Below, one piece after another: positions 10,293-29,767 of a DNA stretch of 64,000 nt. The DNA is taken from assembly GCA_046290225.1 (NCBI GenBank), contig JBKAGE010000038.1, positions 128,001-192,000 on the forward strand. The letters run 5' to 3'. This DNA comes from Bradymonadia bacterium. GTDB lineage: Bacteria > Myxococcota_A > Bradymonadia > UBA7976 > UBA1532. Under the pieces are notes generated by a model. It was given only the letters and a program-made list of their open reading frames with translations. It was not told the DNA's origin and searched no databases. Positions within the stretch are counted from its first letter, which is position 1; each line of letters begins with the position of its first letter. A program made the position numbers and the translations under genes.

Positions 10293-10409
10293 TCAGGCAG
10301 AGCGATCTGCCCCACAGCCCCAGCCTGCTCACACCGTGTGAGGCCCGCTGTTCTGGCAGTGCCTCATAGGCCATCAACCCTCGCCTGTCGGTGTGCTAGT
10401 CTCCCCTCC

Positions 10410-11819
10410 ATGAACACCCAGCCTTCATCGAAATGCCCTCGGCGTGCCCTCCGTATCTCGTGGGGTCTCCCCTGGTTGTTGCTCACCCTGCTGCTGCTCA
10501 GCAGCATCGCTGAAGCCCGCACCCGGGTGGCCATCGGTCGTCTCAATGGCCGTGGCGGGGGTGTGCGAGCCATCGGTAAGCTTCAAAAAGCGCTCAAGAG
10601 CTACGACGACATCGCCATTCACTCAACCAAGAGCTTTCAGCGCAAAGCCAAACGGTTGAGGGTCGAGGGTCAGATCCCCGCCGATCCCAACGCTCTGGCA
10701 GAACTGTGCGAGGCCCTCGACATCGACGCGGTGGTCTTTGGTCAGGTGGAGAAGGCTTCACGTCGGAGCCGACGACGCATCGTACGGGTGCAGGTATACG
10801 ATCGCACCGGCCGGCAGGTGGGCAGCCACGAGATCAACGCAGGGCGGAAGAAGAAGATCCCCACACGGGTCTGGACTGCAGTGGCTCGAGCCATCGAGCC
10901 CGATCTGCGCAGCATCGGCGAGGTGGTCGAGGGCCCCATCATCACCCCTGAAGACACTGAGCCGAGGCCTCGGACCGTGAGGCCAGATCCCGTGGCTTTG
11001 ACACCAGAGCCCGAGCGTGTGGGCCGGCGGCCCCGTGCCGAGACGCGCATCGACGAGCCCATGGGCCCTCGCACCCATGAGATCTTCAAAGCCTCTGCAG
11101 GCCTGTTCTTCTTGTCTCGAACCTTCGAGTACAGCGTCGCCGACCAATCGATCCCCTTCGCCGAAGGCGGCATCGACTACACCACCTCGCTTTCTCCTGG
11201 CATCGTCGTCGAAGCCGAGGTGTTCCCGCTGCGCGCCTTTGTGCGCAACGCTGCTGCCCACATCGGTTTGGGGCTCACCTTCGAAAAGGCCTTCCTGAGC
11301 ACGGAACAGGAGGTCACCGATCTGCAGGGCCAGACTCGGGCCCAGGAGCTCAATACGTCTCACCAGCACATTCGGGCGCGGCTGCAGTACCGCGCACCGC
11401 TGGGCCGCAGCGCGACAGCGGTCCAGGTCGGCGGTCACCTGGGTCTGGGTTGGCTGAAGTTCAGGCTTCAGGACAACCCCGAATACCAGGGGGTAGACGC
11501 CTCGTACTTCGACGTGGGCATTGATGGTCTGTTCCCCCTGGGCACCCCCAAAGCCGCCATCAAAATCGCAGTGCGATACCTACCCAGCGCCGATCTCGGC
11601 GATACCGCAGAAGAGCTCGGCGGTGAAGTCACCACCAGCGGCTTTGGCCTCACCGGGGGTGTCACCTCCAAGCTCGGCGGTGGACTCACCGCCGACCTGC
11701 TCGTGGACTACACGGGCCTGAGCCACGACATCAGCGGTGAGGGTCGGGGGCAGCGCCTCGGCGACACTGCATCGGATGCCTATCTCGGCGTGCGGATGAT
11801 GGCGGGGTATGCCTTCTGA
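10410..11819 (+). CDS. Exported protein with a probable C-terminal outer-membrane beta-barrel
   Basis: Hydrophobic signal ending AEA, an N-terminal alpha/beta domain, a Pro-rich linker, then amphipathic strands ending AGYAF (terminal Phe). Confidence 0.7.
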   Translation: MNTQPSSKCPRRALRISWGLPWLLLTLLLLSSIAEARTRVAIGRLNGRGGGVRAIGKLQKALKSYDDIAIHSTKSFQRKAKRLRVEGQIPADPNALAELCEALDIDAVVFGQVEKASRRSRRRIVRVQVYDRTGRQVGSHEINAGRKKKIPTRVWTAVARAIEPDLRSIGEVVEGPIITPEDTEPRPRTVRPDPVALTPEPERVGRRPRAETRIDEPMGPRTHEIFKASAGLFFLSRTFEYSVADQSIPFAEGGIDYTTSLSPGIVVEAEVFPLRAFVRNAAAHIGLGLTFEKAFLSTEQEVTDLQGQTRAQELNTSHQHIRARLQYRAPLGRSATAVQVGGHLGLGWLKFRLQDNPEYQGVDASYFDVGIDGLFPLGTPKAAIKIAVRYLPSADLGDTAEELGGEVTTSGFGLTGGVTSKLGGGLTADLLVDYTGLSHDISGEGRGQRLGDTASDAYLGVRMMAGYAF

Positions 11820-16601: not shown

Positions 16602-16645
16602 TCCCCCTCAGCCTACAGCGCAGCCCCCGGGGGCGGCGCCTACTG

Positions 16646-16677
16646 AAGAGCCCTCACCTCGGTGGGGGCTTTTTTTG
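16646..16677 (+). terminator. Rho-independent terminator after frr
   Basis: AGAGCCCTCACC-TC-GGTGGGGGC followed by a run of T. Confidence 0.85.
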
Positions 16678-16688
16678 TGGGCGCGCTC

Positions 16689-16720
16689 TCAGAAGAGGCA
16701 TCAGAAGAGGCATCAGAAGA
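16689..16720. repeat. 12-bp tandem repeat TCAGAAGAGGCA (about 2.7 copies)
   Basis: Copies at 16689, 16701 and 16713; the last contains the stop codon of the beta-barrel gene. Confidence 0.85.
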
Positions 16721-18080
16721 AGTAGTTGTAGGCCGCGTTGATCGTGTGAATCAGCAGCGGATCATCATTGCGGAGATCTTGCACCTCCGCCTCGACCAGA
16801 GCTTCATAGTTCAGATCGATTTGATGATGGCGGTTCGGGCGAATCAACACCCCACCCTGTACGGTGTAGAGGGTCTGCTCTTCGTCGAAGGTCCGACTCT
16901 GGCCAGAGGCACGGCCGATCGTCCGGCCGGTGAAGTATGACAACAGCGCATTGAGCGTCAGCCACTGCCCCGCGTCGTACTCCAAATCGAGCAAGAGAGT
17001 GTACGAGTCGGAGACGAAGTTGTTGAGCACCACCCCCTGAAGATCAGCCCGGGCGCCCACCCCGAAGAGATCGTCGTCTCGCAGCCCGGCGATGTATTGC
17101 CAGGCAGAGTCGTCTCCGCGGTTCTGGCCCTGATCTCGCGTACGGTACTCCACTGACTGGTAGTGGTAGTAGCTCGTGCCGAAATTGAGCGATGCCTGAA
17201 AGCGCACCCGATCGTACGCCAGATCCAGCGGCAGCAAACCCAAGGCGTCACGCTGGTTGGGCTCAAGCACATTCCGGAACACCGTGGGATCAGAGTAGTC
17301 AGCCAGTGAGAAGTGACTGTAGGTCAGCATCAGGTTCAACGGCTGTGTCGGCGTGTAGTCCAGCGTGCCGAGGTAGGTGGCCACGTTGGGGCCGTCGATG
17401 AAGTCCATCACCAGATAGCTCGAGACAAAGAGATCTTCGGTGAGCTTCATGTGGATGCGGTTGAAGCCGAACTGCCTGATCTGCTCGCCGTCTCGCATCA
17501 TGGTGTTTGCCGCCAGCGACAAATCGAAGCCTTCTCGATGCAGCGAGCCGTAGAGGCCAGCGGCCTGGTATTCGGTGTTGAACGCCGTGTCGTACGGATC
17601 AGGCGACAGACCACCATAGACCCCAACCACAGCCTTGCGGTTGTCGGCGACGGCGAAGTTCACGTCCACGCCGTCCACCCAGGCGTTCCCCGCCTCGAAG
17701 ATGAGCCGACGGCCCATGGCCAGCTCTACGTCACCGCCGGAGAGCGGCTGCAGCACATAGAACGACCGGGCCCGGACCACCTCTTCGGTCTCGCCAAAGC
17801 GCCGCTCGTTGGACTCGTTGATGTCGAAGATGAAGGTGCTGTCGAGGACCAGCTTCAGGCCCCCCTCGGTGAGCTTGTCGGCCCGCACATCGGCGTCGAG
17901 AAACACGTACGCCGGCTCGGGATAGTCGAGGCTGGCGTTGTCGGTGCTGTAATACCCCCGGAGCGTCATGCGGCCATACAGATCAGCCGGCGACGGCTCA
18001 GTGGACTTCTGCGCCTCTGCGATGCCACCCCAGAGCGCGCCACCGACGATCAGGGCCCGGGCCCACCGTGCGGTGCTCAT
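16713..18080 (-). CDS. Outer-membrane beta-barrel (putative porin of a porin-cytochrome conduit)
   Basis: Signal peptide ending AEA, many alternating amphipathic strands, C-terminus AAYNYFF; start overlaps the cytochrome stop (ATGA). Confidence 0.8.
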   Translation of the reverse strand: MSTARWARALIVGGALWGGIAEAQKSTEPSPADLYGRMTLRGYYSTDNASLDYPEPAYVFLDADVRADKLTEGGLKLVLDSTFIFDINESNERRFGETEEVVRARSFYVLQPLSGGDVELAMGRRLIFEAGNAWVDGVDVNFAVADNRKAVVGVYGGLSPDPYDTAFNTEYQAAGLYGSLHREGFDLSLAANTMMRDGEQIRQFGFNRIHMKLTEDLFVSSYLVMDFIDGPNVATYLGTLDYTPTQPLNLMLTYSHFSLADYSDPTVFRNVLEPNQRDALGLLPLDLAYDRVRFQASLNFGTSYYHYQSVEYRTRDQGQNRGDDSAWQYIAGLRDDDLFGVGARADLQGVVLNNFVSDSYTLLLDLEYDAGQWLTLNALLSYFTGRTIGRASGQSRTFDEEQTLYTVQGGVLIRPNRHHQIDLNYEALVEAEVQDLRNDDPLLIHTINAAYNYFF

Positions 18081-20317
18081 CGGCTGCTCTCACAGGTGCC
18101 ACAGGTGACCCCTGGGCGGGCAGGGACGAAGCTGCGGGTGGTGTGACACTCGTGGCAGTTGTCCGGGGAGCACTGGCCCACGTGGTTGCAGCTCTGGCTC
18201 GCCTGGGTGCCCTGGAACGTGTCGAGGTGACAGAAGCCACAATCGCTCGGCAGCCCACCGAAGACCCGGTTCGGGTGACAGTTGCGGCACTGCACGAAGC
18301 GGTGCGCGCCAGACAGCCGGAAGCCCGTCTGGTTGTGCAGGAACGTCGACGGCAAGAAGGCGTTCTGCGTGTGGCAGTTGTAGCACTGGGGCCCGAGGCT
18401 GCCGAAGTGCGGATCGCGGTGACAGTTGATGCACTCGGGGCCAGTGCCTGAGAGCGCCTTGCTGCGATCAGGGCCGTGGCACTCTTCACAGGGCAACCTG
18501 TCATGCAGGCCATCGAGCTTGAAGGCGCCGAAGTTGTGGTTCTGGGTGCTGTTCGTGGACCAGTCGGCGGTGGTGTGACACAGCGAGCAGTCCGACCCCT
18601 TGGTGCCCTTGTGGATGTCGAGGTGACACCCGTCACAGGTCTGGGGCAGCCCCTTGTAGTCGTTGTTGATGTGGCACTTGGTGCAGTCGACCTCGCGATG
18701 TTTGCCGTACAGGCGGTATTGCGTCTGCTCATCGTGATCGAAGTTGTCGACCTGCGCCCAGGTTTCAGGGGTGTGGCATGCGTCACATGCGCTGTTGAAC
18801 TGCCCCTTGTGGAAGTTCTTGTGGCAGTTGCCGCAGGCGGTGTCGATGGGCCGGTAGTGCCCCTGCTTGTGACAGGCGTTGCAGTCCACCACGGTGTGGC
18901 GCCCCTGCAGCTGGAACTGGCTGAGGGTGTGATCAAACTGCTGAATCCGCCAGCGCTCGAAGCCATTGTGACACCGATCGCATCCTGCCCCTTCGAACTG
19001 CCCGCTGTGGGTGTCGGTGTGGCAGAACGCGCAGTCTTGCAGCGTCTTCACCTCGGTCTCGGTGCCGTTGGGGTGGCACCGATAGCATGGCTGCTCGTAG
19101 TGACGCCCCTCGAGGGCGAAGCCGGTGATGCTGTGATCGAAGCGGGTCTTCAGCCAGCCCACGGGGGAGTGGCAGTTCTTGCACGGCGTCTCCCCGAAGG
19201 TGTCGCCGTGGGGGCTCTCGTCTTTGTGGCAGTCGCGGCACTCGCTCTTGAGGGGCTTGTACTTCCCCCCAGGGTGGCACTTCTGACACGCCACCTTGCG
19301 GTGCTTCCCCTTGAGGGAGAACCGGCTCATGGTGTTGTGGTTGAACTTGGTCCGCTTCCAGCCGGTCTCCTGGTGACACCGGTTGCAGTCGGTGCCGTCG
19401 AACTGCCTGCCGTGAGGGCTCTCGCTCTTGTGACACGTGGAGCAGTTGTTGTTCTTGGGCTTCCACTTCTCCCAGGAGTGACAATCCAGGCAGTCGGCCT
19501 TCTTGTGCTTGCCTCTCAACGCCCAACCGGTGGTGTTGTGCTCGAAGATGTTGGTCTTCTTGAAGCCCGAGGTGACGTGACACTCTTCGCAGATACGGCG
19601 GCCGAAGACCCCTGGGGGGTGGGGGTTCTTGTGGCAGGTGACGCAACCCGTGACCTCGATGGGCCCGAACTTCTTCTTATCGAGGTGGCACTTGTCGCAG
19701 TCCACCTTCTTGTGACGCCCTGTACGGGGGAACCGGGTCTCCCGCTCGTGGTTGAACTTCAGGTTGGCGTTGAGCTTGTTCCAGTCGAAGGTGTTGTGAC
19801 AGTTCTTGCAGTCTTTGAGGTTCACCCGCCCGATGGACTTGCCGTGGTACTCGCCGTGGCAGCCCTGGCAGTCTTTGGGCGCCCCGAGGTAGGAGTCGCG
19901 GTTGCTCCCGGGGCGTTTGGCGGTGTGGCACTCCCGACAGCCCACCCCGACGTGGCCCCCGGTCAGGTTGTACCCCGTCTGCTTGTGGTTGAACTTGCGC
20001 TTGTCGAGGGGGGTGATCTCGTGATTGCGCCCCAGGTGCTCGCGGTGACACGCGTTGCACGGCACCCCTCGGGCCATCCGGCCGTGGTACCCCTGCCCTC
20101 TCTGCATGCGCTTGTCGATGTCGCGGTGGCAGTCGAGGCACTTGGTGTTGGGCACCCCCTTGAACTGCACGTGACACGTGGTGCACTTCGCCGATTTGTC
20201 GAGGTGGGCGTGGGGCCGCGACAAGGGCAGCGGATCGCTCGAGGCGAGCCCGGGAACCAGCAACACCATGATGCAGGTGAGCAGGAAGAGGAGGTATCGA
20301 GAGCCGATGAGAGACAT
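18077..20317 (-). CDS. Exported multiheme c-type cytochrome with 30 CxxCH motifs
   Basis: Likely start MSLIGSRYLLFLL (signal peptide) at 20317, 746 aa. I counted 30 CxxCH by hand, arranged in triheme modules (FxH..TxFxLxGxH...CxxCH...CxxCH..H...CxxCH). Confidence 0.95.
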   Translation of the reverse strand: MSLIGSRYLLFLLTCIMVLLVPGLASSDPLPLSRPHAHLDKSAKCTTCHVQFKGVPNTKCLDCHRDIDKRMQRGQGYHGRMARGVPCNACHREHLGRNHEITPLDKRKFNHKQTGYNLTGGHVGVGCRECHTAKRPGSNRDSYLGAPKDCQGCHGEYHGKSIGRVNLKDCKNCHNTFDWNKLNANLKFNHERETRFPRTGRHKKVDCDKCHLDKKKFGPIEVTGCVTCHKNPHPPGVFGRRICEECHVTSGFKKTNIFEHNTTGWALRGKHKKADCLDCHSWEKWKPKNNNCSTCHKSESPHGRQFDGTDCNRCHQETGWKRTKFNHNTMSRFSLKGKHRKVACQKCHPGGKYKPLKSECRDCHKDESPHGDTFGETPCKNCHSPVGWLKTRFDHSITGFALEGRHYEQPCYRCHPNGTETEVKTLQDCAFCHTDTHSGQFEGAGCDRCHNGFERWRIQQFDHTLSQFQLQGRHTVVDCNACHKQGHYRPIDTACGNCHKNFHKGQFNSACDACHTPETWAQVDNFDHDEQTQYRLYGKHREVDCTKCHINNDYKGLPQTCDGCHLDIHKGTKGSDCSLCHTTADWSTNSTQNHNFGAFKLDGLHDRLPCEECHGPDRSKALSGTGPECINCHRDPHFGSLGPQCYNCHTQNAFLPSTFLHNQTGFRLSGAHRFVQCRNCHPNRVFGGLPSDCGFCHLDTFQGTQASQSCNHVGQCSPDNCHECHTTRSFVPARPGVTCGTCESSR

Positions 20318-20388
20318 CGGCGCACATACTACCCTGATCTGCCGGGAGAGTGGACCTCGTTTATGCGGCTCTTTTTCGCAGCGGCTGT

Positions 20389-22431
20389 TCAGTTGCCGAC
20401 GCGGTACACCAGAGACAGCACGATGTGCATGGCCAGGGCCACGAACATCACGTTGCTCGAGACCACGTGCACGATGCGGTAGCGCCTGAGTACGCGGGTC
20501 ATGAGGGCGTGGCGGGCGATGGAGCGCTCGAGGCGGGCGCGCTCCTTGAGCAGCACCAGCATGTCGTGGGCGTCGCCCTCGTTGATGCCCGCATCTTTGA
20601 GCTCGTCCATGAGGTCGAGCACCTTGCTCTTCTGCACCCGATCTTCGCTGGACAGCTGAGCGATGCCCGCCAGCAGCTGCTTTGCCTCGTCGGTGCTGTA
20701 GCCCGACTGGTCGAGGCGCAGCATCTCGTCGATGCGCATCATCATCGTGTGGCCCACGGCCTTGTTGCTGAAGAGGCCCTGCATCTCCTGGTTCAGGAAC
20801 TGGATCTGAGTGCGCAGCTCTTCGAGGGCCATCATCTGCCCCGCCTGGCTGCGGGGGATCAGATAGATGATGTAGCGACCCACGATGCCGGTGACGATGG
20901 CCAGCATCATCGTGGCAAAGGCAGCAATGGAGACGAAGCCGTGAAAGTAGAAGGCGGTGTGGAAGAAGCCGTATATGCCGCCCAATATGCCGGTGAAGAT
21001 GTGCAGCTCCATCCAGACCTGCACGCTGCCCATCTTCGGGGCCACCCACTTGCCTAATTTGTAGAGCTGCGTGGCGACGCACAACCCGCCCCCCACGTAT
21101 CCGAGGGCGTGGCTGAGGAAGTCACCGGGCCGGAAGGGCGTCAGCGGATCGATGCCCTCTTTGAGGAACCCTGCCTGATGCAGCAGGGTGGTGAACGTGA
21201 GCTCGGGCCAGTGCAGGCGGCCGAAGCACTCCCAGGCCACCGCCAGGGTGTTGAGCAGGGTCATCACCACCCAGAAGAACCGCCAGCCTCTGACGTTCCC
21301 CTCTGGAGAGACCACGTCGCTGAAGCCCGGCGCGTGGTGCACACTGAACTGCTGCCAGTGATCGAAGATGTCCTGGCCGTCGACCTGGAACATGGCCCCG
21401 GTGGGGCAGGCGGTGATGCAGGCCTGATCATCGTAGCCCGTGCAGTTGTCGCACTTCTGGGCGATGTTCTTGCCCTTGGCCTCCGGATCGCGGTCGGGGA
21501 AGTAGCGATCGATGTCGAGATCTTCCACCGAGTGCATGCGGATCGCGTCGAAGCTGCAACCCCGAGCGCACATGGTGCAGCCGACGCAGTTGTCGTCGAT
21601 GACGATCTCCCGCGTCTCTGGGTGAATGCTGATGTGGCCGAACTTGCACTTGTCGATGCACTCCGGCACCACGCAGTTGTGACAGTTCGCCGGGATCTCG
21701 GTGAGGCCGAACTTCACCTCGCTGGGACCGAGACGATCGGTGCCGTGACGATCACGGCAAGCCTCGTAGCACCCGTCGCACTCGATGCAGATGTCCATGC
21801 GCTTGATCTTCACCCGACGGGCGAAGGTAAGGCGCTCCTGCACGATGAACTGAGAGATGTTCTTGCGAAAGTCGTCATCAAAGCGGGTCTGCTGACGCTC
21901 AGTCACGCCCCGGATCGACTCGCTCACCACCTCACGAAAACCCGCTTCCTTGCGCAGCAGGTAGTTGATGTCGGTGTAGCTGAGCTTGAGGACCTTCGCA
22001 GGGCACATGGCCTTGAGCACGACCTTCTGAGTGTCTTCGGTGATGAAGAGCTTCTCGATGAAGGCCTCACCCACGGTGAGATAGTTCACGATGTCAGGGC
22101 CAGGGAAGCCCCGATCGTGCCGGCTCACGTTCACGTCACCGAAGATGACGACAAAGACCGTAGAGGCGTCGTCCTTGGCGCTGGGCGGCGCGTCGTAGAG
22201 CACGTCGCCTCGGGCGAGCTCCACGTGCTCCACCCGAGGGGCGAGGCGCTCGAGCAGGCCCCGCTCCAGATGGCTGAAGGGGCTGTGCTGGGCCAGAAGC
22301 TCCGCGGTGACCTCCACCGGGGCGTTCTTCTTGCCCTTACGGCCACGCTTCGGTGCCGCCTTCTTTGCTTTTTTGAGCTTGAGGGGCTTCTTGGCGCCGG
22401 ACTTGCGCGGGCTGTTTTCGGTGACACTCAC
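20389..22431 (-). CDS. Fusion protein: cNMP-binding-like domain, 4x[4Fe-4S] (DmsB/NrfC-like) domain and ferric-reductase-like di-heme b membrane domain
   Basis: CNB-like segment PFSHL..LARGDVLY..VFVVIFGDVNV..GEAFIE. Fe-S motifs CIECDGCYEAC, CHNCVVPECIDKC, CVGCTMCARGC, KCDNC...ACITACP. TM helices HIFTGILGGIYGFFH and HVVSSNVMFVALAMH (both H-x13-H). Confidence 0.88.
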   Translation of the reverse strand: MSVTENSPRKSGAKKPLKLKKAKKAAPKRGRKGKKNAPVEVTAELLAQHSPFSHLERGLLERLAPRVEHVELARGDVLYDAPPSAKDDASTVFVVIFGDVNVSRHDRGFPGPDIVNYLTVGEAFIEKLFITEDTQKVVLKAMCPAKVLKLSYTDINYLLRKEAGFREVVSESIRGVTERQQTRFDDDFRKNISQFIVQERLTFARRVKIKRMDICIECDGCYEACRDRHGTDRLGPSEVKFGLTEIPANCHNCVVPECIDKCKFGHISIHPETREIVIDDNCVGCTMCARGCSFDAIRMHSVEDLDIDRYFPDRDPEAKGKNIAQKCDNCTGYDDQACITACPTGAMFQVDGQDIFDHWQQFSVHHAPGFSDVVSPEGNVRGWRFFWVVMTLLNTLAVAWECFGRLHWPELTFTTLLHQAGFLKEGIDPLTPFRPGDFLSHALGYVGGGLCVATQLYKLGKWVAPKMGSVQVWMELHIFTGILGGIYGFFHTAFYFHGFVSIAAFATMMLAIVTGIVGRYIIYLIPRSQAGQMMALEELRTQIQFLNQEMQGLFSNKAVGHTMMMRIDEMLRLDQSGYSTDEAKQLLAGIAQLSSEDRVQKSKVLDLMDELKDAGINEGDAHDMLVLLKERARLERSIARHALMTRVLRRYRIVHVVSSNVMFVALAMHIVLSLVYRVGN

Positions 22432-22444
22432 CGGCGCCCCCGAA

Positions 22445-24133
22445 TCAGAAGGGCAGGATGATGCAGAAGCCGGGGCTCATCGGATCGAACTGGAGGCACG
22501 CCTGGCCGGGCTGACACGGCAGGATGTGGTTCTCCGGAGGCTCGAAGAAGTCTGCGGGATCGCGCTTGATACAACTACAGTTACCCCCCAGTGAGGGATC
22601 GAGTGCGTTGGGCAAACATTGGGCGCCCGGATAACAGACGCTCACGCCGCCTTCCCCGTCGCACGTGGCGTTCACTCCGTCATAACACTGCCCAGTGGCC
22701 ACATTACAACGATGGATCATCGGATCGGGGCAGTCAGCGTCGGCGTTGCACCCGGGATCACAGCGACCGGTGTTGATGTTGCACTCGGATCCCATCTGGC
22801 ACTCGGTGCCACGACAGGGGGCGGCGACGCAGGCCTGGCCCTCGCACGCGAAGCCCGCCATGCAATCAGAATCCTGAATGCACTGCACGCACTGACCGAC
22901 GAAGCAGATGGGGGTGTTGGGATCCTGCGCCTGGCAGTCGACGTTTTGCACACAGCCACCCATGGGGGCTTCGCCGCAGGTGTTGTCCATACGGCAGACC
23001 TCACCGGCGTCGCAAGGTACGTCGGGGCCACACTCGGCGCACTCGCCGGTGGCGGCGATGCAGGCTGGGGTGTCGCCCCCGCAGGTGCCACCACAGGCGT
23101 CGCAACGGCCCGACTGGGGCTTGCAGAGATCATCTTCACAGACATAGCCGTCGCCACAGCCTGCGCCACAGGGGGCGAGGCAGAAGCTCTGGGGATCGCC
23201 GTCGGCGAGAGGGGCGCAGCTCAGGCCGTCCTGGCAGCCCTCGGGGCCGGTGCAGGCGCCGCACACCGCGGCGGGGGCGTTGCAGTTGCCATCGAGGCCG
23301 CAGATCTCGCCCGCACCACAGCCGTTGAGGAAGCAGCCCTCGCAGCGGTAGGTGAAGGGTACGCACTGAGTGAGGGTGGCGTCACAGCGGAAGCCCGAGG
23401 GGCAGGCCTCGGCGTCGGCAGGATCACAGGCGCTGGTGCAGTGGGCGTTGGCGCCGAAGCCGGTGCACTCTGCCCCCTCACCGAGGCCAGCACAGTCGTC
23501 GACCCCACGACAAGGAGAGCAGAGCTGGGCGTCCTCAGGGTTGATCATGCCGCCAGCGCCGCCAATCTCACCGCCAGCGCCGGCCATACCGCCAGCGCCG
23601 CCTTCACCACCGGCCATGCCGCCTTCGCCACCGGCGCCACCAGCGCCGCCGATGATGCCGCCGCCGGCGCCGCCCATCCCGCCGGCACCACCCACGGGAC
23701 AATCGGTGCCACAGACGCCACCGCAGCACTGGTAGCCCTGGCCGAGATCACTGCAGTCAGCGCCGCTCTGGCAGCTGATGGCGGGATCCGCGCAGGAGAA
23801 GCGGAAAGGACCAGTCTCGAGACAGACCGGGCGCTCGTCGGGACAGATGCCGCTGGCCCCTTCGGGCACGTCGGCGCACTCCTTGGCGCTGCAGCTCTGG
23901 GTATCGAGCAAGCAGGTTCGCCCTGTGCCGGAGCACGCGTTGATGCTGGCACACGACTCGGTGGTGCAGCTGCCGCCGTTGCACACCTGCCCGCGGGGGC
24001 AGGCCAGATCGTTGGCGCAACCCGCCGCCTCTTCGCTGTCATCACAGCCGACGAAGGCCAGGCTGCTCAGCAGGAGCATGGCCCCCAGCGTCAGACCGTC
24101 AATGGTGCGCCGCAGCGCAGAGCGTTGTTCCAT
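22445..24133 (-). CDS. Cys-rich surface lipoprotein with a GGAGG linker
   Basis: Lipobox FVGC-DD, many C-x4-DC-x2-G-x2-C modules and a Gly/Ala linker; ends 13 bp before the Fe-S fusion gene. Confidence 0.85.
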   Translation of the reverse strand: MEQRSALRRTIDGLTLGAMLLLSSLAFVGCDDSEEAAGCANDLACPRGQVCNGGSCTTESCASINACSGTGRTCLLDTQSCSAKECADVPEGASGICPDERPVCLETGPFRFSCADPAISCQSGADCSDLGQGYQCCGGVCGTDCPVGGAGGMGGAGGGIIGGAGGAGGEGGMAGGEGGAGGMAGAGGEIGGAGGMINPEDAQLCSPCRGVDDCAGLGEGAECTGFGANAHCTSACDPADAEACPSGFRCDATLTQCVPFTYRCEGCFLNGCGAGEICGLDGNCNAPAAVCGACTGPEGCQDGLSCAPLADGDPQSFCLAPCGAGCGDGYVCEDDLCKPQSGRCDACGGTCGGDTPACIAATGECAECGPDVPCDAGEVCRMDNTCGEAPMGGCVQNVDCQAQDPNTPICFVGQCVQCIQDSDCMAGFACEGQACVAAPCRGTECQMGSECNINTGRCDPGCNADADCPDPMIHRCNVATGQCYDGVNATCDGEGGVSVCYPGAQCLPNALDPSLGGNCSCIKRDPADFFEPPENHILPCQPGQACLQFDPMSPGFCIILPF

Positions 24134-24263: not shown

Positions 24264-25712
24264 CTACGCGCGCAGGCCCGGGTGAAGAAAATCCAAGCCG
24301 GTGATGGGCTTCATCATCTCCCGGATGAAGCGACGCTCCCGGGCGAGCTCGCGGTAGCCGTTGCGCAGGGCAAGGCTGAGCTTCCGCTCTTCGGGCACAA
24401 GCTCGAGAGGGCTGAGCACATGCCTGAAATTCTTGGTAAACCCGGCATATCGGGCGTTGGACGACACCTGAGGACGGATCAACCGCTGCAGCGGGTGCGC
24501 CATGAGGTTGCGGGTGAGTTGAGGCGCAAAGCAATCCATGGCCAGGATGAAAGCGTTCTGCGTGCCCACATCACCGCGCTGCACCGACTCCCAGGCCACG
24601 CGGCTGGGCACGTTGTTCACCACCCCGCCGTCCACCAGTCGGTTGATGCCGTTCTGCTCCAGCAGCTGCGACATCAGGGTGTGCATGTGATCATCCTGGC
24701 GCCAGATGTCGTAGTGGATCAGCGCCGGCACGGCAGAGGAGAAGCCCACAGCGTCGACGACGTCGAAGCGCCGCGTCATCTCGTCTCCGCCGATGACCAC
24801 CTCTCTCAATCGAGGGCGCTTCACCAACTCGGCGATGACTGCAAAGACCCGCCGTAGCTGGCGGCGGATCACAGAAGGCGACACCTTCTGCTGCTCCACC
24901 ACCTCGTCCATCAGGTGCTCGTAGTAGTCGAGATCCCGGCTGAGATCCCCCTTGCCGATGCCTGCAGCCACCACCCGCATGGGGATGCCGAGCTCTTCCA
25001 TCCAGAGGGCCCGCTCGCCGCTCTCGTGCATGAAGTGGCGGCCGATCCCCTTGCGCAGATAGAGCCGGAGCGAGGCCGGCACCCCATAGCGGCTCGCCGC
25101 CGTAGGCTGCATGAAGACCTCACGAAATTTAAGTCCCCGAGCAAGCTCGTAGGCCTCGTCGAGATCGAACCGACGGTGCCGTGCCCGGAACAAGCTGATG
25201 ATCGAGCCCATGGAAGTACCCACCAACAGCTTGGGCACCAGCCCCATGTCGTCGATGAGCTTGAAGGCGCCCATGTACACATAGCCCGATCCGCCTCCAC
25301 CACCAGCGACGGTGATCAACGCCTTGCGACACACTTCGTGGTCGAGGGCTGCGGCGGAGACGCGCTGCTGCTGGTCGACGATACGCTTTCGCGTACGATC
25401 GGTGATGGTGTGCAGAACAGGCAGCGCCTCACGAAGCGTTCGCCAGTCGATGGCGCCTGGGGTCTCGAGGAGCAGGGGCTCAAGGACTTCGACCACCCGG
25501 GCATGAAACTCGTCGAGGGCCCCTTCAAGGTCGACGGTGCGCCCCTCTTCAGGCACGCACTCCACCCGAGCGAGATTCAACGCATACCGCAGCGCAGCAG
25601 CCTCACGAGGGGCGAGGCGATCAGGGCGCTCCACGAGGCCCCGAACCACGGCGACCTCCATGTGCTCCAGGGGGTTGATGCGCTCGAATCGTTTGTCGAG
25701 GTTGATGGTCAC
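24264..25712 (-). CDS. Patatin-like phospholipase
   Basis: GGGGGSG oxyanion loop, GTSMG nucleophile, DGG; likely GTG start at 25712 after GAGG. Confidence 0.9.
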   Translation of the reverse strand: MTINLDKRFERINPLEHMEVAVVRGLVERPDRLAPREAAALRYALNLARVECVPEEGRTVDLEGALDEFHARVVEVLEPLLLETPGAIDWRTLREALPVLHTITDRTRKRIVDQQQRVSAAALDHEVCRKALITVAGGGGGSGYVYMGAFKLIDDMGLVPKLLVGTSMGSIISLFRARHRRFDLDEAYELARGLKFREVFMQPTAASRYGVPASLRLYLRKGIGRHFMHESGERALWMEELGIPMRVVAAGIGKGDLSRDLDYYEHLMDEVVEQQKVSPSVIRRQLRRVFAVIAELVKRPRLREVVIGGDEMTRRFDVVDAVGFSSAVPALIHYDIWRQDDHMHTLMSQLLEQNGINRLVDGGVVNNVPSRVAWESVQRGDVGTQNAFILAMDCFAPQLTRNLMAHPLQRLIRPQVSSNARYAGFTKNFRHVLSPLELVPEERKLSLALRNGYRELARERRFIREMMKPITGLDFLHPGLRA

Positions 25713-26018
25713 TGATCCTCGAGGTGAGAAAAGTACACAAACATTTACAGGATCAACGACCTCTTCAGTCCAGCATTTTACACGTTCACCACAACTCGAC
25801 CCACCCTCGGGCACCTCGGCCCGAAGTGGATCCGGGTCGAGGCTCGCCAGCCTCAGCAAAAATATTGGGCGAGAATGTCAGAGTTCGACCTTCCATCTCG
25901 AACCACAGCTCAGGGACACGGTGAAGTTGCTCGATTGACGTGTCACAACCCCAAAGAGTGTTGGGGACACAACCCCGAAAGCACTTCCGAATACACGAAT
26001 ACATGGAGTGCTGTTTTG

Positions 26019-29035: not shown

Positions 29036-29767
29036 TCACTTGAAGTGGTACGCCACACCAATGGTGAAGAAAGCCTGGAACTCCCACTCGGTGCTGATCT
29101 CTCTGATGCGCGCAGTGTTCCCTTCGAGATCCACGGTGGGGTATCGATCGGTCACCTTCCGGGAGAAGCCCGGCGTCCAGTTGCCTCGGAACGCGATGGG
29201 GATGCGGATGTCAGCGTCGGAGACGGGCAGGATGATGTCCATACCGAGCCCGAACCCCAGAGCGGTGTAGAAGTCGGCGCTGGCGCTCTTGAGATCAGTG
29301 ATGCTGCCCGCATCGACCTCGGAGCTCACGGGGATCACGAACTCGGGGCCCACCATCAAGAAGGGCCGTGTGGTCCGATAGGGGATGGCGGCCTTGACCA
29401 TCAACGGGATGTGGATCGACGACTGACTCAAGGTGACGTCGACATCGAGAGCACCAAAGTCATAAGTACCCGTGCCCCGCTCGGCCATGTAGAGCAGATC
29501 GAGTTCGAGGCCGATGGCGCCCCGGTACATGTAGGCGAAGGAGAGGCCACCGCCACCACCGACGCCGGCAAAGCCGGGGTAAGGCAGCTGAGCGTTCTCG
29601 TAGGCTTTCTCTTCTTCAGAGGGCTCGCCGATGAAGCTGCCGTTCACCAGCCCCATGGCGCCGATGCCGAACTCGTGCTTCCGCGCTTTTTTGGCCTGGG
29701 CCTGACCCGCAGCGAGCAGGAGGCCAAAGGCCACACATGATGTGGTGATGAGTGTGGTGAGTTTCAT
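29036..29767 (-). CDS. Small outer-membrane beta-barrel protein
   Basis: Signal peptide ending AQA, strands such as LELDLLY, IHIPLMVK, PFLMVGP, and C-terminal IGVAYHFK. Confidence 0.82.
   Translation of the reverse strand: MKLTTLITTSCVAFGLLLAAGQAQAKKARKHEFGIGAMGLVNGSFIGEPSEEEKAYENAQLPYPGFAGVGGGGGLSFAYMYRGAIGLELDLLYMAERGTGTYDFGALDVDVTLSQSSIHIPLMVKAAIPYRTTRPFLMVGPEFVIPVSSEVDAGSITDLKSASADFYTALGFGLGMDIILPVSDADIRIPIAFRGNWTPGFSRKVTDRYPTVDLEGNTARIREISTEWEFQAFFTIGVAYHFK

Follow-up and report, generated by a model that had tools for sequence, protein, structure and literature searches.

A compact variant of the PCC3/PCC4 porin–cytochrome conduits predicted at a conserved gene cluster of Bradymonadia

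A 64,000-nucleotide stretch of the genome of a Bradymonadia bacterium (GenBank assembly GCA_046290225.1, contig JBKAGE010000038.1, positions 128,001 to 192,000; hereafter the window) carries three genes, here called A, B, and C, that may together form an electron conduit across the cell envelope. They encode, respectively, an iron–sulfur (Fe–S) protein fused to a putative di-heme membrane domain, a 30-heme cytochrome c, and a predicted outer-membrane barrel.

The Gene Cluster

All three genes are co-oriented (Table 1). A and B are separated by 71 nt, and the start of C and the stop of B share the sequence ATGA. A fourth gene, D, has the same orientation and ends 13 nt upstream of the start of A. 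A convergent rpsB-tsf-pyrH-frr block lies downstream of C, with a hairpin between the two; its z-score is −3.5, one of 200 shuffled sequences being equally stable, and it is absent from the listing of a consensus scan. The hairpin is probably the frr terminator and marks the end of the cluster. A promoter scan returned 0 sites.

The first-pass annotation had described three co-oriented genes, with four ferredoxin cysteine clusters and two H-x13-H helices in A, a signal peptide and 30 CxxCH motifs in B, and a barrel coupled to B through the ATGA overlap. Each of these features is found where it was placed. The three-gene description is incomplete to the extent that it overlooked D. The true start of B is the ATG at 20317 rather than the upstream GTG of a listed 1001-residue open reading frame (ORF); that ORF and other overlapping ones were dismissed as spurious frames of the kind that a GC-rich genome produces.

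Table 1. Features of the cluster, in window coordinates
Feature	Position	Strand	Description
Gene A	20389..22431	−	680 aa; CNB fold, 4x[4Fe-4S], five-helix membrane domain
Gene B	18077..20317	−	746 aa; signal peptide, ten three-heme modules; homolog of PCC3 periplasmic cytochromes
Gene C	16713..18080	−	455 aa; signal peptide, predicted 22-strand plug-less outer-membrane barrel, C-terminal Phe
Gene D	22445..24133	−	562 aa, 75 Cys; lipobox-like FVGC at residue 30 (by eye)
Hairpin with U-run	16645..16676	+	between frr (+) and gene C (−)

The Iron–Sulfur/Di-Heme Fusion Protein

In A a basic, disordered N-terminal tail is followed by a cyclic nucleotide-binding (CNB) fold (residues ~40–185), an Fe–S domain (205–360), and a membrane domain (379–679). 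The structure model (pLDDT 85.4) places five helices in the membrane, the fifth being preceded by a long helical insert. The 16 cysteines of the four ferredoxin groups, at residues 215–342, are invariant in all 75 homologs that were aligned, out of 120 listed. Pfam recognizes 4Fe-4S dicluster domains, and the NCBIfam and PDB matches to the Fe–S domain are HydN/HycB-like and HydN/DmsB-like four-cluster proteins; the modeled ferredoxin domain aligns with 9mqx_E at Z 11.1.

The membrane domain matches no Pfam or NCBIfam family, PF01794 included. It contains the pairs H477-x13-H491 and H655-x13-H669, whose four histidines are kept in 74, 75, 75, and 74 of the 75 homologs. The combinations W473/H477/H491, Y651/H655/H669, and T514-G-x-x-G518 are the motifs of inner-membrane proteins (IMPs) of the PCC3 and PCC4 type, with W in 11 and S in 16 of the 75 homologs. 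On these motifs the domain is predicted to bind two b hemes. Neither a signal peptide nor a twin arginine is seen in A on reading by eye, and the loop charges are consistent with an N-in topology; the CNB and Fe–S domains would thus be cytoplasmic, with one histidine pair near each face of the membrane.

The CNB-like domain was correctly seen at first pass. Its Pfam cNMP match is weak (E 0.023, below the cut-off), and the fold is clear (Z 13.8 to 3mdp_A, rmsd 2.9 over 119 aligned residues); Foldseek and VIA searches with whole A returned only CNB and ferredoxin folds, the CNB domain filling the lists. The accompanying suggestion of a built-in regulatory domain is weakened. The phosphate-binding cassette motif Gly-Glu...Arg, which characterizes cAMP- or cGMP-binding CNB domains, is not retained in the A family: the Gly position is I, V, L, or F in 64 of 64 close homologs, Glu is mostly replaced by Gln (51 of 64), and Arg is not conserved. 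The cassette is intact in P0113 and P0114, two proteins called PtdE-type by anatomy and not by published accessions. Given its degenerate cassette, the domain of A probably binds neither cAMP nor cGMP and is probably a structural module or one for another ligand.

The 30-Heme Cytochrome

B has a hydrophobic N-terminal signal and exactly 30 CxxCH motifs, about 24 residues per heme, arranged as one N-terminal and nine c7-like three-heme modules; its profile matches the dodecaheme 3ov0 (E 4.7e-10). Exactly 30 histidines outside the motifs, one per heme, are invariant in 40 of 40 aligned homologs. All hemes are therefore probably bis-His, with no obvious open catalytic heme, and B would serve as a wire rather than an enzyme. 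Modules 1–5 are basic and modules 6–9 acidic, the C-terminal half as a whole being acidic to neutral; module 9 is the most conserved. Twelve hemes extend over about 12 nm, and by scaling 30 hemes would reach about 30 nm. Conduit cytochromes of 21–27 hemes are described as possibly spanning the periplasm (PMC10734462).

The window's genome encodes no paralog of B. It has other ORFs with 9–11 CxxCH motifs (C3:25106-28501, C58:22501-25764, C78:227552-228925, C38:213053-215251). In Kofleriaceae and Haliangiales (L092, L096-L133) the C-termini of the B proteins carry a conserved RES[VI]CR-like sequence that adjoins the start of the barrel.

The Barrel and Its Predicted Occupant

The model of C (pLDDT 86.6) consists of a signal helix followed by 22 strands, without a plug. 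C matches no Pfam or NCBIfam family at E 0.1, the ESM Atlas returned unnamed clusters only, and the names of 20 distant homologs are uninformative. Fold searches with C return porins and TonB-dependent barrels of a generic kind, with no match prominent: the best is a SusC barrel (Z 19.3), and MtrB (6r2q_B; Z 15.7, rmsd 6.4, 359 aligned) is one among many. Two further outer-membrane β-barrel genes of the window, with OMP_b-brl matches (10338-11819, + strand; 29036-29767, − strand), are unrelated to C.

As the first-pass annotation had advised, cytochrome and barrel were modeled together. Residues 26–455 of C with residues 526–746 of B gave a score of 0.69, against 0.00 for the best of three controls. 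Of solved pairs 116 of 157 come up to this mark, and of mismatched pairs 2 of 215; with our own alignments it is a rough guide here. At least 67% of contacts are common to the runs, and the partner pLDDT is at least 71. In the model C encloses B595–729, which holds the last six hemes, and 21 of its 22 strands take part, with almost every contact on a single face. Conservation is higher at contact residues than elsewhere, 0.74 against 0.58 in C and 0.79 against 0.65 in B, figures that are not independent of the model. The last six hemes of B are thus predicted to be threaded inside C; the model supports binding and does not show it, and part of its favorable score may reflect likeness to the similarly arranged solved Mtr complex.

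Distribution and Conservation

A is present in 20 of 24 genomes of the family, in all three other genomes of the order, and in none of 13 others of the class. B occurs in exactly the same 23 of the 27 family and order genomes, a co-occurrence that speaks for one system. In 16 of 20 relative loci B directly follows A, each time with exactly 30 CxxCH motifs, so that the heme count is not a matter of chance. C follows in 15 of these loci; in the remaining one the contig ends. Where B and C do not follow A, in four of the 20 loci and in genome G027, the two are paired elsewhere in all five genomes.

A wider survey took the best 80 of 259 loci, nine of them from the host's order. Among these 80, Fe–S and membrane domains are fused in one ORF in 71. 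Given room on the contig, a B-family gene lies downstream of A in 54 of 65 loci, and a barrel comes next in 46 of 47. The A-B-C arrangement recurs across Myxococcota, in Kofleriaceae, Haliangiales, and Polyangia records with 24–30 hemes, and distant barrel matches led to a B-family cytochrome beside the barrel in 14 of 16 short loci. In Haliangium ochraceum the protein Hoch_5161 is a B homolog with 28 hemes and is 74% identical to the B protein of an intact A-B-C locus (L092); the organism is described as strictly aerobic (PMC3035250). A lake survey reports many unassigned cytochrome clusters in Myxococcota (10.1101/2022.03.26.485925).

Two other cluster types occur among relatives. Family members L048, L050, L051, and L054-L057 have a second cluster, absent from the window's genome, with a stand-alone IMP, a 23-heme B-family cytochrome, 11–19-heme cytochromes, a related barrel, and in many cases a flavoprotein. 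L047, L049, and L053 have a third, with several 8–9-heme cytochromes, a CNB, Fe–S, and membrane protein, and a flavoprotein whose chain also includes seven CxxCH motifs.

Gene D lies beside A in 19 of the 20 relative loci and stays with A when B and C are located elsewhere. It may be a mere neighbor, and its membership in the system is uncertain. That two genomes (G004 and G006) have D but neither A nor B makes D less likely as a necessary subunit; D also has paralogs, and no match to it stands beside A in the Kofleriaceae, Haliangiales, and Polyangia loci whose B records have 24–30 hemes. In the ESM Atlas D finds cysteine-repeat matches only, below 0.9. The place of D upstream of A is filled, in some Polyangia-like loci, by a small lipoprotein that has one or two CxxCH motifs (L122:8120-8770, L138:7919-8662). 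Upstream of D the window has a patatin-like phospholipase gene (24264-25859, − strand), which keeps this position in 6 of the 20 relative loci.

The Electron Donor

Homologs of A provide an indication of the electron source. In three of the 103 Fe–S and membrane homologs listed, an inserted flavodomain separates cluster motifs 3 and 4, in a loop that corresponds to residues 315–324 of A: P0099 and P0105 in full, P0107 in part. The best NCBIfam match of the insert is YpdA-like, below the cut-off. A similar association appears in Proteobacteria. The B profile found 46 matches in 401 gammaproteobacterial genomes, and the 20 on long contigs (L191-L210) were taken; all 20 have the anatomy of PCC3, by which, and not by name, they were assigned: an IMP, a 21- or 24-heme B-family cytochrome, and a second, variable cytochrome. 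A gene for a membrane-anchored ferredoxin–YpdA-like flavoprotein stands beside the IMP in 17 of the 20, mostly divergently; PCC3 has been described as four genes (PMC5566968, PMC10734462). A ferredoxin–flavoprotein also stands beside the IMP on plasmid pEMTOL02 of Emticicia oligotrophica (L174:6655-19239). The plasmid cluster of this cultured Bacteroidota strain further holds ccsA, 23- and 40-heme cytochromes, and a C-related barrel.

The fusions and the neighboring flavoproteins favor a cytoplasmic donor over quinone, and a sequence NAD(P)H to FAD to Fe–S to heme b to heme c for the PCC3/PCC4-like class. The cytoplasmic donor suggested at first pass is supported indirectly, through homologs that carry an NAD(P)H flavodomain in the same chain.

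Proposed Pathway and Its Alternatives

We consider it somewhat more probable than not that A, B, and C constitute one continuous envelope-spanning wire, which carries electrons outward from a cytoplasmic carrier and bypasses the quinone pool. The conserved gene order, the bis-His wire, the predicted threading of the barrel, and the match to PCC3/PCC4 heme b motifs agree with the conduit originally proposed. A cytoplasmic reductant would reduce the four [4Fe-4S] clusters of A; in relatives this would be NAD(P)H by way of a flavoprotein, in the host some other carrier. The inner membrane would be crossed through two b hemes, bound by H477 and H655 on the cytoplasmic side and by H491 and H669 on the periplasmic side. 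The basic N-terminal modules of B would accept the electrons from A, and the 30 bis-His hemes would span the periplasm. In accord with the controlled complex model, the last two modules would lie inside C, with the terminal hemes exposed outside.

When electrons leave a cytoplasmic donor for the outside of the cell, membrane potential is consumed rather than generated. Such dissipation points to a redox valve or a surface reductase rather than to mineral respiration, and the job is likely to be redox balancing or the reduction of soluble acceptors outside the cell (metals in chelated form, quinones or humics, and perhaps O2). The gene content of the host does not point to Fe(III) respiration. 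The genome, which is 99% complete, has genes for oxidases of the aa3 and cbb3 types and carries an ACIII-like cluster; three of its four molybdoenzyme matches were examined, and all three fall below the cut-offs for respiratory reductases. One match to the NapC/NirT family, a CymA-type candidate, lies elsewhere in the genome, unlinked to the cluster.

More tentatively, and with considerable doubt, the proposal can be extended: aerobic myxobacteria would push cytoplasmic reducing power to the surface independently of quinones, for offensive or nutritional ends (prey surfaces, metal chelates, O2); the fusion would show the whole PCC3/PCC4 class to be wired to the cytoplasm; and the form that lacks a flavoprotein would have a new kind of donor.

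Several observations weigh against the outward wire. Three queries found no cognate flavoprotein in the window's genome, and none was found in 10 of 24 carriers of A and B, five of these ten being 90% complete or better. A flavoprotein is nearby in only 5 of the 71 fused loci of the 80 surveyed, which argues against simple transfer of the flavin scheme to the host, and no 2-oxoacid:ferredoxin oxidoreductase was found in the host genome. The 11 of 65 loci without a B-family gene downstream of A, three of which have one nearby on the other strand, depart from the gene order. Related genomes are not independent observations, and the complex model was built from the alignments that underlie the conservation figures. 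No item of evidence sets the direction of electron flow. Finally, the membrane domain of A may contain a quinone site, as He et al. (2017, PMC5566968) propose for IMPs of this kind.

That last possibility leads to the best of the alternatives, a quinone-coupled conduit like that envisaged for PCC3 and PCC4, in which the di-heme domain turns over quinone and the Fe–S domain is a side branch or relic. With no cognate flavoprotein in the host or in the 10 carriers just mentioned, quinol would be the simplest donor available. The invariance of all 16 Fe–S cysteines argues against such a demotion of the Fe–S domain, and the flavodomain fusions and neighbors tie the A family to cytoplasmic NAD(P)H chemistry; on balance we regard quinone coupling as unlikely.

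It is less probable still that the wire runs inward, with outside donors or partner cells reducing the cytoplasmic Fe–S domain for energy gain or for a redox sensor read by the CNB fold. Porin–cytochrome conduits are said to be potentially reversible (PMC10734462), the CNB fold abuts the Fe–S domain, no catalytic module is fused to A, and one PCC3 IMP is reported to have risen with iron oxidation in strain CL21 (10.1101/2025.02.27.639646). Inward flow would require an outside donor of very low potential, unlikely for aerobic hosts, and both PCC3 clusters of Sideroxydans ES-1 are reported as down-regulated on Fe(II) (PMC8788666).

The least probable alternative is a wire that ends within the envelope, C anchoring B while electrons are stored or passed to D or to surface O2 (as NOX-like superoxide). 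In its favor, the cluster holds no extracellular cytochrome, D accompanies A even when B and C are elsewhere, and the hosts are aerobic, H. ochraceum strictly so. Against it, D has paralogs, occurs also without A and B, and is not matched beside A in the Kofleriaceae and Polyangia loci, and the hemes all look bis-His, which would make a poor O2-binding site.

Comparison with Known Systems

The outward wire shares features with several known systems. With MtrAB, MtoAB, and PioAB it has in common a multiheme cytochrome inside a plug-less barrel, here predicted. It differs in that B has 30 hemes in c7-like repeats rather than being a decaheme protein, in that C has no MtrB family match, and in having its own inner-membrane module, A, instead of CymA. 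The barrel of MtrB has 26 strands, compared with 22 in C. With the ferric reductase, NOX, and MsrQ proteins A shares two His-x13-His pairs on helices 3 and 5 and, by prediction, a two-heme relay from the cytoplasm outward; unlike them, it lacks a PF01794 match, and it would receive electrons from a ferredoxin domain instead of a C-terminal FAD/NADPH domain and deliver them to a c-heme wire. The EET1-4 clusters described from peat (10.64898/2026.05.27.727921) were set aside as a counterpart, since the cytochromes reported there have 8–13 hemes.

The architecture was not recognized at first pass as that of a characterized system. That judgment is not supported, since like parts have been grouped as Ptd or PCC4 and the membrane domain and cytochrome are homologous to those of PCC3, although neither system is characterized. 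The cluster ptdABCDEFG, described as functionally uncharacterized, is reported to combine a porin and 5-, 4-, and 10-heme cytochromes with an FAD/NAD(P) oxidoreductase, a membrane protein resembling ferric reductases, and a protein that has CNB and [4Fe-4S] domains (10.1101/2023.11.21.568154). As in A, the CNB and Fe–S protein (PtdE) of PCC4 subgroup II and Ptd directly precedes the membrane protein (PtdF), in company with a porin and multiheme cytochromes. A profiles match loci of PCC4/Ptd anatomy (L134 and L136, assigned on the same basis as P0113 and P0114), and A matches the two PtdE-type proteins at E 4e-23 and 2e-26. A thus reads as, in effect, a PtdE–PtdF fusion that is combined with a PCC3-type cytochrome. 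In the A family such fusion is general, and He et al. (2017, PMC5566968) mention one PCC4 genome with the Fe–S and IMP genes annotated as one; A has one degenerate CNB domain in place of the two intact ones of Ptd, and its cluster lacks penta-, tetra-, and deca-heme cytochromes and a PtdC-type FAD/NAD(P) oxidoreductase. A description of the fused Myxococcota module, or of a flavoprotein partner of PCC3, was not found in the literature searches, although figures or supplementary tables of He et al. and of the Ptd preprint may show such.

The resemblance to PCC3, itself a predicted conduit (He et al. 2017, PMC5566968; Hoover et al. 2023, PMC10734462), lies in B and in the membrane domain of A. 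He et al. recognize IMPs of PCC3 and PCC4 by SGXXG together with a pair of WX3HX13H motifs, and suggest that these proteins are quinone-active b cytochromes. The five-helix membrane domain of A, with two [WY]X3HX13H motifs and [ST]GXXG, is homologous to the PCC3-type IMPs (HHalign 99.7%, E 1.5e-26). B is likewise homologous to the repeat cytochromes of more than 20 hemes, its profile scoring 389–515 bits on the 21- and 24-heme proteins, and its 24 residues per heme lie inside the 22–39 reported for PCC3. A porin-like ORF comes next in 10 of 10 PCC3-type loci checked, and both systems have a barrel of about 22 strands. The homology of C to these porins is doubtful: against nine of them HHalign gives a weak match (2.3%, E 0.021 over 332 columns) with a common GR..G...DG motif. 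The second cytochromes of the PCC3-type loci reach 69 (L191) and at least 88 (L195) CxxCH motifs. Unlike the stand-alone PCC3 IMP of about 300 residues, A is fused to the CNB fold and four [4Fe-4S] clusters; a single 30-heme cytochrome serves the system, with no extracellular cytochrome beside it in the window or in the 20 relative loci; and A-B-C belongs to Myxococcota, PCC3 to Proteobacteria.

PCC3 and PCC4/Ptd are widespread predicted conduits, and the published model ties them to quinones and iron oxidation, yet Sideroxydans ES-1 down-regulates PCC3 on Fe(II). The near-universal presence of A-B-C in an aerobic order of Myxococcota argues for a non-respiratory or redox-balancing role, and with Hoch_5161 encoded by a cultured strict aerobe the question may be directly testable. 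Equipped with a barrel and a membrane entry of its own, a single-chain wire of 30 hemes would be a compact part for bioelectronics as well. A-B-C works like PCC3 and PCC4/Ptd and is a member of neither, since it lacks the extracellular cytochrome of the one and the small cytochromes and flavoprotein of the other. Its parts were already known; the fusion and the single-cytochrome composition, with the fewest parts among conduits of this type and the Fe–S input fused to the membrane hemes, set it apart as a compact variant of PCC3/PCC4.

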